Shown one piece after another: positions 13,042 to 22,691 of a stretch of DNA of 32,000 nt. How positions within the stretch are numbered: the first letter of the stretch is position 1; each line of letters opens with the position of its first letter. The position numbers and the translations under genes were made by a program. The notes under the pieces are model-generated. The model was not told where the DNA came from, did not search any database, and saw nothing but the letters and a program-made list of their open reading frames with translations. Origin of the DNA: Candidatus Altimarinota bacterium (GTDB lineage Bacteria; Patescibacteriota; Gracilibacteria; UBA1369); contig JBAZYK010000009.1 in assembly GCA_041659405.1 (NCBI GenBank), forward strand, positions 30,001-62,000, read 5' to 3'.

Positions 13042-14358
13042 TTAACTTGGCTCTTTTACTTTAGCAGGCTCTTCTGCAGTATTAGCGGCAATTGGTTCTT
13101 TAGACGTTTCCACCGGAGCCCCCTGTCCATTTAGATATCTTCCAAGAGCCCAAATTTTAACGTGTGCTTCAGTTTGCGGTTTTAATTCTTCAGCTTTAGC
13201 TCTTGCTCCAGCCTGCCAACCCTGTGCCTTTATAATCTCTGCAGTATGAACAGAATTTTTAATTGGTTGATTTTGCAATTCTATTAGCTTATTTGTTGCT
13301 GTTAAATAACCTTGCCCGTTTTCCAGTGATAATGCCAATACTTTTTGATCATCCGGACTGGAAGCCATAGCTTGAAAAGTTTTTTTCAACGTTGCATCAA
13401 TGTCAGTCTTTTGTTTTTCCGCAGCCGCTTTTATACTTAACAGTTTAGGATCTTTCAAGTCACCTGCACGATTAAATTGCTCAATCATCTCAACCAAAAC
13501 TCCATTTTGATCAAGCAGAGTAGAAACGTTTTGAGCCAGTTGTGCACTTCTTTCACCGACCAAATCGTTAAACGTTTTTTCGTTTTTTCCAGCAGCTGAA
13601 TCGCCAACCATCTTTTCACGTCCTTTTACTAATGCATTGATAGCTGCCGCATGATTAGGTTCATCTAAAAAGCCATTCACGTCCTTAAGCGCGTCATCAC
13701 CTTTTTTCACCTTACTATCCAGATTATTTGTAAAGGCTTCGGCCGCCTGATCAAATTGATCCACCTGATCATGAACTGACTGATAAAGTTCCTGATTATC
13801 TTTTTCAAATCCTGGGACCAGTAGACCATCCAACTCGGCAGCATTTAAAGTAAGTTCCGCCCCGACTTTTTTCATGATTTCCACTGCATGTATATCCAAT
13901 CCCTTCACCATTAATTCCTTGAAAGCTCCATCATTTTTAGCAAGTGTGGCCTTAAGTTCGGTCTTTTTATCCACAAATTTTTCCAGTCGGCGATAATTTT
14001 CCGTGTTTGCCACAATTTCAGCCAAAGCTTTATTACGCGCTTCCTCAATCTCTTTGCGAGCCTGTTTATCAGCATCTGTCCCCTCTTTCGGAAGCTTTCC
14101 TAAAGCAATTTCAGCAATAGAAGTAATTTCTGCATTCTGACCCTTGATAATTTCATCAGCATTAAATTCTTTTTCAGGAGCCAAAATATCTTTTTGAATC
14201 CGTTCCGTGGCCTCTACCATATCTTTTTTAACCTGTTCAGTATCGGGCTTTTGACCTGCAGTTTCAGCTGGACCGGCCACTTGAAAAACCAGGCGATTAT
14301 TCAAAAATGCTGGTAAATTAGTCGCCCCACAATGCCGAAATTTTTTAAAATGTAACAT
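13042..14358 (-). CDS. orphan 'long' family protein (RLVFQ N-terminal motif), 438 aa
   Basis: N-terminus MLHFKKFRHCGATNLPAFLNNRLVFQVAGPAE aligns with five paralogs. The rest is K/E/A/D-rich helical sequence with a P/E/A-rich tail. It starts 3 nt after the upstream gene. No TM helix or Sec signal. Confidence 0.75.
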   Translation of the reverse strand: MLHFKKFRHCGATNLPAFLNNRLVFQVAGPAETAGQKPDTEQVKKDMVEATERIQKDILAPEKEFNADEIIKGQNAEITSIAEIALGKLPKEGTDADKQARKEIEEARNKALAEIVANTENYRRLEKFVDKKTELKATLAKNDGAFKELMVKGLDIHAVEIMKKVGAELTLNAAELDGLLVPGFEKDNQELYQSVHDQVDQFDQAAEAFTNNLDSKVKKGDDALKDVNGFLDEPNHAAAINALVKGREKMVGDSAAGKNEKTFNDLVGERSAQLAQNVSTLLDQNGVLVEMIEQFNRAGDLKDPKLLSIKAAAEKQKTDIDATLKKTFQAMASSPDDQKVLALSLENGQGYLTATNKLIELQNQPIKNSVHTAEIIKAQGWQAGARAKAEELKPQTEAHVKIWALGRYLNGQGAPVETSKEPIAANTAEEPAKVKEPS

Positions 14359-14361
14359 AAA

Positions 14362-19878: not shown

Positions 19879-19955
19879 TACATCAAAAACAGCGCGATCT
19901 TGCGCGACATGGGCCACCACCACCTCACGCTCTCACCACAAAACAAGCTGGACTT

Positions 19956-22691
19956 TTATGTTTCTCTAATTCTTTTAACTGTCTCAATCATTTGCGCAAA
20001 GTTGCCGGAAACCCCTCCAGTTTGCGCTTTTCTGCCATTTACAAAATAATGGAGCTGATTATTTTCCAGCCAAACAAATAATTGTGTTGGGCCAAAATTG
20101 CCCCAATCAAGTGTCACATTAGCAACCTGCTCAACCTTATTATTTTGGTCGATCTTAAAATTTATAATTCTGCCAATCGCCGCCCGTTCATTATTGTAAT
20201 TGTAGGAATTGGTAATGGTATCAAACAGAATTTCGTGCTGTGAAGCCGTATCTATAGTTTTGAAATGCTGATCTTCTTCAGCCCACGCGCGAATATGTTT
20301 CATTTTTAGGGCAAATTCCGGCAGACTTTCCGCCACTCCTTCACGCATAGAACCGCCATCATAAGCCACATTTTCACGATTAACCCTGTAGCCAATGCGA
20401 CCAAATGGCAAAGCCCGAACATCAACCTTTGCATTTGGATTATTCCAATCCAATTCTACGGTGTAATCATAAGGCGGAGTCTTTTCGGTCTTCTCCACAT
20501 TGCGAACTGTCCCCGTTACTTTTTCGTGTTGTTCAAATTGGTACTTTGATCCAAGCACTTTCAGCATGACTTTTTGCAAAGCTGAACCATCATTCACCGC
20601 GCGTAAAACATCTTCTTTGCTGTTATAAGGTTCCTCAAGTTCACCACCATTATAAGAAATTTTATATTTTCCATCAGGCATTCTAAAAGCACGGAACGCC
20701 AGCATGTAGCCATTAAATAGCAAATCAAAACGTGCTCCATCGGGTTTATCCGCATAAGCATCAATTGCTCTAAGTTGATAAAGATAATTTGGATTTATCG
20801 GTTTTAAATTTTCATGATTTTTTTCAAATGCCGCTGTGATTCTTTCAGGGCTGACCGAAGCACCTTCCGGCGTTCTTGTTTTTTCCTTGGGTCGAGGCTT
20901 TTTCATAACCCAGTCGTCGCAAATCATATGGCTATGATCGGCATAGTCTACTTTGTAATAGAGTTTCCCATTTACTTCCCGTGCCGGATTATTTGGATTA
21001 AATAATGTCATTTCTTCTCCGGGTGCAACTGTCACTGTGCGATCAATCTTGCCTTGTTCCGTCCTGAAATAAACAATATTTCCGGGCTTAATTACAAGCT
21101 TCCCGGTATATCCCGCCAAATCAAATTTTGTAACTTCGTGTCCTTTATCCCAATCGCGTGCAATTTCATCAACTGATTCCACTGGTCTTTCGGCAGATGC
21201 CGCAGGTGTAGAAGTTGGAGTAGCTGTTGGGGCATTAGTAGGCGCAGTAGTTGGGGCCACGGCTGGACTCACTCCAAGAGCAGAAGCACCTTTTTTGCCT
21301 GCAGCCTTCTTTCCGGGAGCTTTAGCCTGCACATCCGCAGGGGCTGGCGTCACCACTTTGACTTCAGTAAGAATCCCGGCAGTTGCCAACTTTGGAACCT
21401 TTGCGGCAGGATTAACGTGCCCCTTGTCCAAAGTAGCCCTGATAAGATTGTTCGCTTTGGCTTCCACCACTTTGTTTTCCAATAGATCAAAACCATCCTT
21501 CTTAATTTTTGCCTTAATTTTTGCATCATCATTCAAATCCAACATTTCTTTAACTAACGGATACAATGGATCATTAATATCAATTTTAAATTGCTCTATT
21601 AATTTTCTAGCCGTGTCATTAAAAGTTGCAATATTTTGCCTTAAAACCGTCAATCTTAATTCTTTTTCCGCCTCTTCCAATAAGTTTCGCGCGGATACTT
21701 CGGAATGAATTTTATCAAGTGTCTCAGGCTTCATAATATCTTCCACAACTCCTCCATGAATAAAATCAAACTTCAATTCACTTTGCAATTTTTCAGCTTT
21801 TCTCACGAAAGCCTGAATTTGCCCTTTGCTGATCTCCACTTCCGCTAATGAGTCCGTTAAAAGAGGAATATCCAGTAGCACCTGTTTGTCAGAGCCCCAA
21901 CTTCCTCTCCCTTTTCCTTTTCCGGATGTAGCATCTTTTATTTGTTCTAAAGTATCCTCACGAAATTCATCAAATTTAGCCGGGAATTTCTTTTTTGCGC
22001 CGTTAAAAAGGCCTACAAAATAAGCTTTTTCACGCGCGTCCAGGTTCAGATGGGAAAGCTCCTGTTCATATTCGGCAAAATTGGCGATTTTTTTAACCAC
22101 ATCGGTATCCAGCTTTGTCCCCATGGTCCAACCCTCACTGGATTTATCAAATGCCGCTTTAAATTTGCCATAAGCCTCATTAGCAGAGGCCTTATCATAC
22201 ATTCCTAAGCCCGTAAGATACCCAACAACAGATTGATAAGCTTCCCCGTCTTTGTCAGTGCCTTCATAGTCATCAATGCCACCATCTTTTGGTTCAGCCA
22301 GCTCTTCTGCATATTTTACCGCCTCATCAAATTTGTTAGCCTTATTTGGAACAATCTCACTATAAAGTTTATTTAAATCATCGCTTACTTCACGAATCAA
22401 TGCCTTTTTATCTTCCTTTTCTTTAAGATCTAACCCTATGCTTTTAAGCTGGTGTTTGTCTTTCAACTTGCCAATTTTAGACTCGATTGATCTTGGATTT
22501 GGTCCTCTTGCGGTTGCCAAAGTACGAATACGTTCAGCCGATTCATTTACGGCTTTATCAAATTCCTGTTTAGAAAAATCCGGCTTCTTTTCCAGTTCAG
22601 AAACTTCCTGAGTCACATATGCCTGTTCACGCGACTGCTCGGGTTTGTTTTGAAATACGAGTCTGTTTGGTGAGAAAAAATGTATTTTCAT
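19956..22691 (-). CDS. orphan 'long' family protein, giant member (RLVFQ motif), 911 aa
   Basis: N-terminus MKIHFFSPNRLVFQNKPEQ, then ~430 aa of helical K/E/D-rich sequence, a P/T/A-rich linker (aa ~446-500), and a beta-rich C-terminal region with an internally repeated unit (LDWNN / LDWGN ... [YF]xxNG/DGG + helix). Confidence 0.8.
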   Translation of the reverse strand: MKIHFFSPNRLVFQNKPEQSREQAYVTQEVSELEKKPDFSKQEFDKAVNESAERIRTLATARGPNPRSIESKIGKLKDKHQLKSIGLDLKEKEDKKALIREVSDDLNKLYSEIVPNKANKFDEAVKYAEELAEPKDGGIDDYEGTDKDGEAYQSVVGYLTGLGMYDKASANEAYGKFKAAFDKSSEGWTMGTKLDTDVVKKIANFAEYEQELSHLNLDAREKAYFVGLFNGAKKKFPAKFDEFREDTLEQIKDATSGKGKGRGSWGSDKQVLLDIPLLTDSLAEVEISKGQIQAFVRKAEKLQSELKFDFIHGGVVEDIMKPETLDKIHSEVSARNLLEEAEKELRLTVLRQNIATFNDTARKLIEQFKIDINDPLYPLVKEMLDLNDDAKIKAKIKKDGFDLLENKVVEAKANNLIRATLDKGHVNPAAKVPKLATAGILTEVKVVTPAPADVQAKAPGKKAAGKKGASALGVSPAVAPTTAPTNAPTATPTSTPAASAERPVESVDEIARDWDKGHEVTKFDLAGYTGKLVIKPGNIVYFRTEQGKIDRTVTVAPGEEMTLFNPNNPAREVNGKLYYKVDYADHSHMICDDWVMKKPRPKEKTRTPEGASVSPERITAAFEKNHENLKPINPNYLYQLRAIDAYADKPDGARFDLLFNGYMLAFRAFRMPDGKYKISYNGGELEEPYNSKEDVLRAVNDGSALQKVMLKVLGSKYQFEQHEKVTGTVRNVEKTEKTPPYDYTVELDWNNPNAKVDVRALPFGRIGYRVNRENVAYDGGSMREGVAESLPEFALKMKHIRAWAEEDQHFKTIDTASQHEILFDTITNSYNYNNERAAIGRIINFKIDQNNKVEQVANVTLDWGNFGPTQLFVWLENNQLHYFVNGRKAQTGGVSGNFAQMIETVKRIRET

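Follow-up and report, generated by a model that had tools for sequence, protein, structure and literature searches.

The candidate phyla radiation (CPR), or Patescibacteria, makes up a large share of bacterial diversity, and hardly anything is known about its envelope biology, its division accessories, or the proteins with which it interacts. We analyzed an eleven-gene array in a 32,000-nt stretch of Candidatus Altimarinota DNA (contig JBAZYK010000009.1, positions 30,001–62,000; hereafter the window) and compared it with the described systems that lie closest to it. Wall-anchored surface proteins include PspA and CbpA, InlB and Ami (GW), the Cwp proteins with three CWB2 domains, and S-layer proteins with three S-layer homology (SLH) domains. 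Signal-less clients encoded beside small all-helical partners are known from the type VII secretion system (T7SS) of the b type, T7SSb (LXG proteins with Lap1 and Lap2), and from flagella (substrates of FlgN, FliT, and FliS). The divisome tethers and related pairs comprise ZipA, the FtsA and MinD tails, EzrA, PilN-PilM, and FtsN-FtsA, and short N-terminal peptides are known to dock on actin-like proteins, as PilN does on PilM and FtsN on FtsA.

The array consists of eleven minus-strand open reading frames (ORFs), all of which were found at the coordinates predicted for them. We refer to the products as L (long) or S (short) followed by their length in amino acids (aa). The order in the direction of transcription is L|S L S L L S L S S L, and the last ten genes are separated by 45, 6, 7, 42, 14, 30, 2, 9, and 3 nt. 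The original prediction had described this order, gaps of 2–45 nt, a convergent ftsZ, a co-directional def, and a divergent femAB, and all of these were confirmed. The array is conserved yet fast-changing, and it is probably specific to the Peribacteria and vertically inherited. The locus is without a described counterpart; it is new as a gene system, and a function can be proposed from its anatomy and context only. What we infer most firmly is that the S and L proteins cooperate on the cytoplasmic side of the membrane, because S proteins are conserved and carry membrane anchors, L proteins share a common tag on unrelated, fast-changing bodies, and S-L pairs are kept and duplicated as units. 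The coordinates of the features are summarized in Table 1.

We compared the largest protein, L911, with the wall-anchored surface proteins of monoderm bacteria. L911 and its homologs resemble these proteins in having a variable helical front, a Pro/Thr linker, and an SH3-like barrel with three alpha/beta modules, and in L911 the constraint is concentrated in the C-terminal block. Unlike wall-anchored surface proteins, the L proteins have no Sec, YSIRK, or lipoprotein signal, and unlike choline-binding, GW, CWB2, SLH, and LysM modules, the L911 repeat module has neither a sequence match nor a significant fold match. Structure modeling followed by fold searching, which had been suggested as a check, gave confident models of S120 and of the L911 C-terminus, and neither model had a significant match in the PDB. 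The model of L911 residues 501–911 (predicted local distance difference test (pLDDT) 90.5; predicted template modeling score (pTM) 0.74) shows an SH3-like barrel followed by three sheet-plus-helix modules, and repeats 2 and 3 of the triple module are homologous (hhalign P 2.2e-11). The triple module also gave no sequence match in the PDB. A HMMER search placed its family in 59 clusters among 1.84 billion representatives. The members inspected were all large, started with the head described below or with a second conserved N-terminus, and had no signal peptide. A Pfam scan of 46 triple-module homologs revealed no recurrent fused domain, and each listed family appeared in one member.

The barrel was examined in ten homologous segments. 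One segment matched SH3_3 (E 0.002; 18.7 bits, cut-off 27) and one matched GW (E 0.013; 16.6 bits, cut-off 21), and the L911 segment of the window itself gave no Pfam hit. Four of the six top hits in a profile search of the PDB were SH3b domains that come from wall hydrolases or surface proteins (E 0.1–1.1), and a search of BFVD gave local matches to phage endolysins (probability 1.0, E 0.04–0.1). The L911 barrel thus looks like a bacterial SH3 domain at a sub-threshold level. NCBI lists the protein as 'PT domain-containing'.

L911 orthologs are 935–941 aa long and 35% identical to L911. A strain variant, P0048 (L021 10001–13108), is 92% identical to L911 by BLAST. Some 125 inserted codons give it one more SH3b-like barrel together with one more Pro/Thr linker, which indicates that the domain number of L911-type proteins varies between close strains. 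The ratio of nonsynonymous to synonymous substitution rates (dN/dS) between L911 and P0048 was 0.27 overall, 0.3–0.5 in the helical N-terminal half, and 0.06–0.11 in the C-terminal module; def, proB, proC, and femAB gave values of 0.04–0.12 against the close strain. These values indicate that the genes are functional and that the front part varies while the back part is conserved.

The six long proteins had been described as one family of paralogs, and this claim did not hold. The best pairwise BLASTP E-value among them was 0.12, and iterative searches tied only L210 to L207 (jackhmmer from the L210 seed reached L207 at E 4e-32), plus each long protein to its own ortholog. On these comparisons, the long proteins are several unrelated groups that share a bipartite head of about 25 residues rather than one homologous family. 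The first element of the head has the consensus MKxLx[C/F] and the second F-x3-[K/R]-[L/A]-[V/I]-[F/Y]-x3-P. We built a position-specific scoring matrix (PSSM) from 24 heads, all from other genomes, and scored it against 99 ORFs of the window. L911, L121, L438, and L268 took the top four places with 22.5–14.3 bits, and the best decoy scored 9.4; L207 scored 1.6 and L210 lower. The claim of a conserved N-terminal head is therefore clearly borne out in these four proteins and not in L210 and L207, in which the head is degenerate. The 217-aa ortholog of L210 in the related locus L006, to which L210 is 32% identical, has a clear head.

No hydrophobic core follows the head in the array proteins or in the 49 homolog N-termini inspected, which indicates that the head belongs to none of the Sec, Tat, and lipoprotein signal types. 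A Cys residue occurs within the first 12 residues in 18 of 41 head-bearing proteins, against 0.73 expected, and is often the sole Cys of the protein; the binomial P of 3e-22 includes orthologs and therefore overstates independence. This Cys was considered as part of a lipobox, and the reading was rejected because no hydrophobic region precedes it. The head Cys lies at positions 4–10, and members without it carry Phe or Tyr there. The C-terminal peptide of FtsZ and the INLLP motif of PilN resemble the head by eye only, and these likenesses were set aside.

The bodies of two long proteins are peculiar. L121 may be a truncated remnant of a 553-aa protein (L006 10418–12079; first 117 residues) or a minimal head-plus-helix protein. 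The L268 body had no detectable relative in the related loci examined, and L268 takes the place of an unrelated 831-aa protein.

Table 1. Positions of the array genes, their parts, and adjoining elements in the window.
Feature	Position	Strand	Description
L911	19956..22691	-	Head-bearing; K/E-rich helical stretch, Pro/Thr linker, and SH3b-like barrel ahead of a C-terminal triple alpha/beta module
L911 head	22635..22691	-	Residues 1–19, MKIHFFSPNRLVFQNKPEQ; 22.5 bits, top of 99 window ORFs
L911 Pro/Thr/Ala-rich linker	21177..21281	-	Residues ~471–505; sub-threshold Pfam PT-repeat hit
L911 SH3b-like beta-barrel	20892..21176	-	Residues ~506–600; AlphaFold model all-beta, pLDDT mostly 80–96
L911 triple beta-sheet + helix module	19959..20801	-	Residues 631–911; AlphaFold pLDDT >90 over most of the module
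femAB-family gene	18793..19878	+	Pfam FemAB E 4e-54; between L911 and S120, on the opposite strand
S120	18351..18713	-	Most conserved short protein; anchors the locus in all relatives; 41 orthologs, 39–84% identity
L121	17940..18305	-	Head PSSM 17.5 bits; aligns to residues 1–115 of the 553-aa L006 protein
S114	17589..17933	-	S120 paralog (BLASTP E 4e-12, hhalign P 2.4e-23)
L268	16775..17581	-	Head PSSM 14.3 bits; jackhmmer recovers only itself
L210	16100..16732	-	Degenerate head EKRLVMQY; sole Cys at position 6 (16715–16732)
S116	15735..16085	-	Partner of L210; 64% identical to the L006 ortholog
L207	15081..15704	-	L210 paralog; degenerate head QRFVYQH
S130	14686..15078	-	S116 paralog (BLASTP E 1.5e-18); ends in basic-aromatic tail KPERKKFFGLF
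S104	14362..14676	-	Short, basic, helical; 62% identical to the L006 ortholog
L438	13042..14358	-	Head PSSM 17.4 bits; final gene of the run, which meets ftsZ convergently; Cys10 (14329–14358)
Promoter-like site	18742..18770	-	TTGAGT-17-TATAAT with extended -10 TG, 10/12 matches; just upstream of S120 and the ten-gene run
Terminator-like hairpin	22759..22781	-	10-pair stem followed by a T run; between def and L911

The short proteins were compared by hhalign, with 30 reversed sequences as controls, all of which gave P ≥ 0.087. S120 aligned with S116 at P 3.7e-4 over 103 collinear columns. A further S subfamily of 138–147 aa, found in five related loci and present only in relatives, bridges the two, with P 8.7e-9 to S120 and 3.8e-10 to S116; through it, S120 and S114 are joined to S116 and S130. 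These alignments securely place S120, S114, S116, and S130 in one superfamily. S104 aligned with S116 at P 5e-3 and with the upstream S113 subfamily at P 1.5e-4, and it is a probable distant member. The claimed family of five short proteins thus stood for four of them and received moderate support for S104. The two families originally proposed are better described as one S superfamily and a class of head-tagged proteins. The description of the short proteins as acidic failed for S104 (isoelectric point (pI) 9.1) and S116 (pI 6.6). The S proteins range from about 105 to 190 aa across the family and from 104 to 130 aa in the window. The AlphaFold model of S120, built from its 41 orthologs, was all-helical (pLDDT 87.5) with a small four-helix N-terminal unit followed by a 49-residue helix; S120 gave no sequence-profile match in the PDB, and its best fold match there had an E-value of 1.6.

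The bridging subfamily carries a single C-terminal transmembrane (TM) helix with a Kyte-Doolittle mean of 2.1–3.0, which is preceded by a K/R cluster and followed by only 2–6 residues. The K/R cluster and the position of the helix at the extreme C-terminus indicate a tail-anchor topology that places the S domain in the cytoplasm. This topology was found in the 138–147-aa subfamily of the relatives and not in the S proteins of the window. Two S relatives have tails like that of S130, namely KKKKFLGIF and KKKSFFGFLGKKFFGKKK. By eye, these basic-aromatic tails look like the amphipathic tails that target proteins to membranes, of which the organism's own FtsA has an example at its C-terminus (…KGWVKGLFP). 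The TM-anchored S proteins of relatives are like E. coli ElaB, YqjD, and YgaM (DUF883) in combining a soluble helical N-terminal domain (about 110 aa) with a K/R cluster and one TM helix at the extreme C-terminus. They differ from these proteins in that no match to DUF883 or to any other Pfam family was found in them, and the S proteins of the window have no TM helix.

Orthologous arrays were found at the same place in at least seven other Peribacteria/Peregrinibacteria contigs. In every related contig with enough sequence, the order starts with def or other housekeeping genes, followed by one to three genes that include one for a large triple-module protein; then come femAB on the other strand, the run of S and L genes with the S120 ortholog, and convergent ftsZ-ftsA. 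The femAB gene is a landmark at the same position in all related loci. In line with the original prediction, adjacency was conserved in related genomes, and it was subfamily-specific: a TM-anchored S follows an L of about 500 aa in five of five loci, the S113 type precedes an L of about 800 aa plus a head-less triple-module protein in four of four, and S104 precedes the L438 type in two of two. The L210-S116 pair is single in L006, which has no L207; this absence and the paralogy of L207 to L210 indicate that L207-S130 is a tandem duplicate of L210-S116. Gene number and gene length vary between species.

The head-less triple-module proteins of relatives are 885–1065 aa long (L015 3669–6848, L018 3705–6902, L007 3674–6850, and L005 6271–8928) and share another N-terminus, …P-I/L-E-x-L-E-x-x-I…V-T-x-x-D-V-x-x-A-F/Y. 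Each of their genes lies directly after a gene for a head-bearing L of about 800 aa, which hints at a two-protein unit. The window has no such unit, and L911 joins the head and the triple module in one protein.

We compared the proteins of the window with those of L006. The neighboring genes gave identities of 98.5% (FtsA), 94% (FtsZ), 80% (def), 77% (proC), and 67% (femAB). Among the S proteins, the values were 82% for S120, 64% for S116, 62% for S104, and 37% for S114 (first 52 residues). The L proteins were the most divergent, with 35% for L911, 34% for L121, 32% for L210, and 27% for L438, whose ortholog has 388 aa.

One rival explanation is that there is no joint system at all and that hypervariable, weakly constrained, lineage-specific genes have collected between landmarks, their head being shared 5' ancestry from duplication. 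L121 as a remnant of a 553-aa protein, L268 without relatives in the related loci examined, the variation in gene number and length between species, and the raised dN/dS of the helical part of L911 are consistent with this explanation. On the other hand, the head is the sole conserved part across unrelated bodies and across species whose S120 proteins are 45–55% identical, which argues for selection on the head itself. In addition, S120 keeps 82% identity in the comparison that leaves the L proteins at about 30%, the C-terminal module of L911 is strongly constrained, and the L-S pairings are conserved by subfamily. We consider the absence of a system improbable on these grounds.

The explanation that we tentatively favor is that the S proteins act as adaptors on the membrane side, with the head-tagged L proteins as their clients, and that the L proteins are probably exported, wall-associated proteins. 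The array would then be a cell-envelope module within the remaining division and cell-wall gene neighborhood. The S proteins would lie on the membrane's cytoplasmic face, where several subfamilies would be held by a tail-anchor TM helix or a basic-aromatic amphipathic tail, and the head would serve as the common docking or targeting tag of the L proteins. Each S protein may serve the L protein of the adjacent gene as its cognate adaptor, either chaperone or receptor, and the L proteins would be delivered to the wall or surface by a route other than Sec. The largest of them are laid out like wall-anchored surface proteins of monoderm bacteria, with a helical variable front, a Pro/Thr linker, and a putative anchor of SH3b-like barrel plus repeats. 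In this scheme, S-L binding, what the head does, and the export and wall binding of the L proteins are all proposed steps. A more specific version, in which an undescribed CPR route for targeting or export has its receptors, tail-anchored or amphipathically anchored, read the head and send L proteins to the wall or surface, where the SH3b-like barrel and triple-repeat module anchor them, seems unlikely to us.

Export is preferred because of the wall-protein-like layout, the asymmetry in rates, the variation in domain number between strains, and the context of femAB and other envelope genes. Several observations weigh against it. Neither a Sec signal nor a TM segment was found in about 100 family members, and the default reading of such an absence is a cytoplasmic location. 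No gene for a translocon, an ATPase, or a holin-like protein was found in the window or in about ten flanking regions (~10 kb) of relatives. Only one of the six L proteins of the window, L911, carries a putative wall anchor, and the window has no TM-anchored S protein. The SH3b assignment consists of sub-threshold hits and local fold matches, and the top list of the PDB Foldseek search contained Tudor-like barrels in place of SH3b domains. Furthermore, the adjacency of L and S genes could reflect co-regulation without physical interaction.

The same absences agree with a cytoplasmic, membrane-proximal scaffold, in which the S proteins would tether head-tagged L proteins near both the divisome and the enzymes of peptidoglycan synthesis, and the L proteins would act as internal spacers or organizers like ZipA, EzrA, or DivIVA. 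The ligand or partner of their SH3b-like and repeat domains would then be cytoplasmic, and lipid II modified by FemAB, FtsA, and FtsZ are examples of what it could be. No signal peptide or TM segment was detected in any L protein or in 49 triple-module homologs, the anchors of the S proteins put the S domain in the cytoplasm, no secretion machinery lies nearby, and all loci without exception keep their synteny with ftsZ-ftsA and femAB. The array is also like the divisome tethers in adjoining ftsZ-ftsA, in the FtsA-like tails of some S proteins, and in the design of the L proteins, which join a short conserved peptide and a long flexible or helical spacer to a globular end; their K/E/A-rich helical and low-complexity segments are of the kind seen in such tethers.

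It is unlike the divisome tethers in lacking homology to them, in being convergent with ftsZ and therefore not co-transcribed with it, and in the far greater divergence of the L proteins. At this FtsZ distance (94% identity), the L identities of 27–35% are far lower than would be expected of division proteins. The Pro/Thr linkers, the SH3b-like barrel, and the variation in domain number are more typical of wall-associated proteins, and the N-terminus of the window FtsZ failed the head PSSM. The original prediction had offered a membrane-tethered coiled-coil scaffold as its own alternative. Membrane tethering is supported by the TM tail anchors of S relatives and the basic-aromatic tail of S130, but the coiled-coil part was not supported: in a crude Fourier test with 200 shuffles, a 3.5-residue periodicity was significant only in L438, and in the other ten array proteins it was exceeded by 9–68% of the shuffles. 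Regarding where the L proteins end up, we keep export as the tentative preference and regard the cytoplasmic scaffold, its main rival, as somewhat unlikely.

We searched all eleven array proteins against Pfam and ten of them against NCBIfam, PHROGs, and PADLOC, and no family threshold was passed and no significant E-value was obtained. These results agree with the original prediction that none of the proteins is assignable to a known family. A profile hit to a characterized family had been named as the outcome that would count against the prediction, and none was found. In PHROG and PADLOC, no match had an E-value below 8e-4, and no relative was found among the viral contigs of IMG/VR. We rejected prophage or other mobile cargo and anti-phage defense because the libraries yielded no homologs and the position between femAB/def and ftsZ is fixed in all loci. 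Our search of the literature on Peribacteria and on the division and surface proteins of Patescibacteria found no description of the locus.

The array had also been likened to type III secretion system (T3SS) effector-chaperone pairs, T7SS substrates, PE-PPE proteins, and polymorphic protein families, and every defining feature of these layouts that could be tested failed. The likeness to LXG-Lap1/Lap2 and to FlgN, FliT, or FliS with their substrates consists of signal-less L clients beside small all-helical S proteins, in pairs that are conserved and co-duplicated. The differences are a lack of homology, a shared L part that is a 25-residue peptide and not a helical domain of 100–200 aa, the membrane anchors of some S partners, and the lack of an ATPase or translocon in the window and flanks. 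A divergent member of the Esx or LXG-Lap, PE-PPE, T3SS or flagellar substrate-chaperone, or toxin-immunity type is consequently very unlikely. The resemblance is superficial and extends to the layout only, in which helical proteins with a conserved N-terminus and no signal adjoin small helical ones of ~100–130 aa. No hit above a family threshold, WxG motif, or toxin domain supports it, nor does any EssC-type ATPase in the window or the flanks of related loci.

The individual tests were as follows. No TM segment or signal peptide was found in the array proteins, whose highest 19-residue Kyte-Doolittle mean was 0.92. No array protein contains a WxG motif, which in the S proteins of the window follows from a complete lack of Trp, and neither Pfam nor NCBIfam gave a hit above threshold or with a significant E-value to LXG, WXG100, Lap, or PE/PPE. 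CesT, FliS, FliT, and FlgN likewise gave no Pfam or NCBIfam hit that passed the threshold or had a significant E-value. The YxxxD/E export motif was absent from the last 40 residues of the array proteins, save for one chance match in L121, and no secretion ATPase was found among the scanned window ORFs of at least 100 aa. The original statement that no Sec signal, TM helix, WxG motif, lipobox, or secretion ATPase is seen was thus borne out for the array proteins and, as regards the ATPase, for the scanned ORFs. A class I T3SS chaperone was rejected because these have the alpha-beta fold of CesT and SycE, and the S120 model is all-helical with no fold match in the PDB. A polymorphic toxin-immunity array was rejected because the L tails are low-complexity or form the conserved triple module, no toxin domain was found, and the S proteins are one conserved superfamily and not diverse immunity families.

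The locus has a testable grammar, namely an N-terminal tag, a partner family with membrane anchors, a confidently modeled C-terminal module, and a position relative to ftsZ, ftsA, and femAB that is fixed throughout the class. Should the tag be a signal for export or targeting, it would define a non-Sec route in monoderm-like bacteria and make their surface proteome predictable from sequence. If the L proteins form a cytoplasmic scaffold, they would provide accessories for division or wall synthesis that are so far missing in this lineage, which is without the usual set. In either case, the head motif, the S-family profiles, and the two folds without a significant PDB match lend themselves to database annotation and to experiments on structure and interaction.

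The genes are real. Logan assemblies from two other sequencing runs match this DNA along 20,351 and 13,888 bases with 0 mismatches, and independent gene calls on the two assemblies gave the same eleven products. The start of S120 (18713, 120 aa) matches the independent gene calls and the N-termini of its orthologs, all genes read through with translation table 11, and the GC content of the array is about that of the neighboring genes. One strong promoter had been proposed for the ten-gene run. The best promoter-like site of the region (18770–18742, minus strand) does lie just upstream of S120, but it is a consensus match only, and such sites were no more frequent across the region than in shuffled sequence.

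The neighborhood contains further genes of envelope or division character, including a Mur ligase and a flippase-like gene in addition to femAB, ftsZ, and ftsA, and no candidate for an ATPase or a channel was found there. The window FtsZ was tried as a bearer of the head because of its N-terminal extension, and it was dropped because it fell outside the top 20 of the PSSM (score below -0.5) and the resemblance was loose. This extension of about 30 residues (11784–11880, plus strand) is clade-wide, and its motif D-[S/N]-L-R-N-L-F-S-G was identical in every locus inspected. A gene for a ParE toxin (PF05016) and an upstream 83-aa partner lie on the plus strand at ~9457–9979 between a 5'-3' exonuclease gene and ftsA; the relatives L003 and L004 have no pair at that position, and it therefore looks like a lineage-specific toxin-antitoxin insertion. 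An orphan 329-aa gene adjoins def (23430–24419, minus strand). It has no Pfam match, carries a DGVGGG motif that is PP2C-phosphatase-like by eye, and gave a dN/dS of 0.345 against the close strain, the highest value measured in this analysis. The window also encodes an SLH-domain protein (1930–3210, minus strand) and a small membrane protein resembling a type IV secretion system (T4SS) pilin (7182–7553, plus strand), and the latter gene was also called in L003 and L004. In L015, a 479-aa protein (14067–15506) with a signal peptide and an SLH-like motif, both recognized by eye, is inserted between the array and ftsZ.

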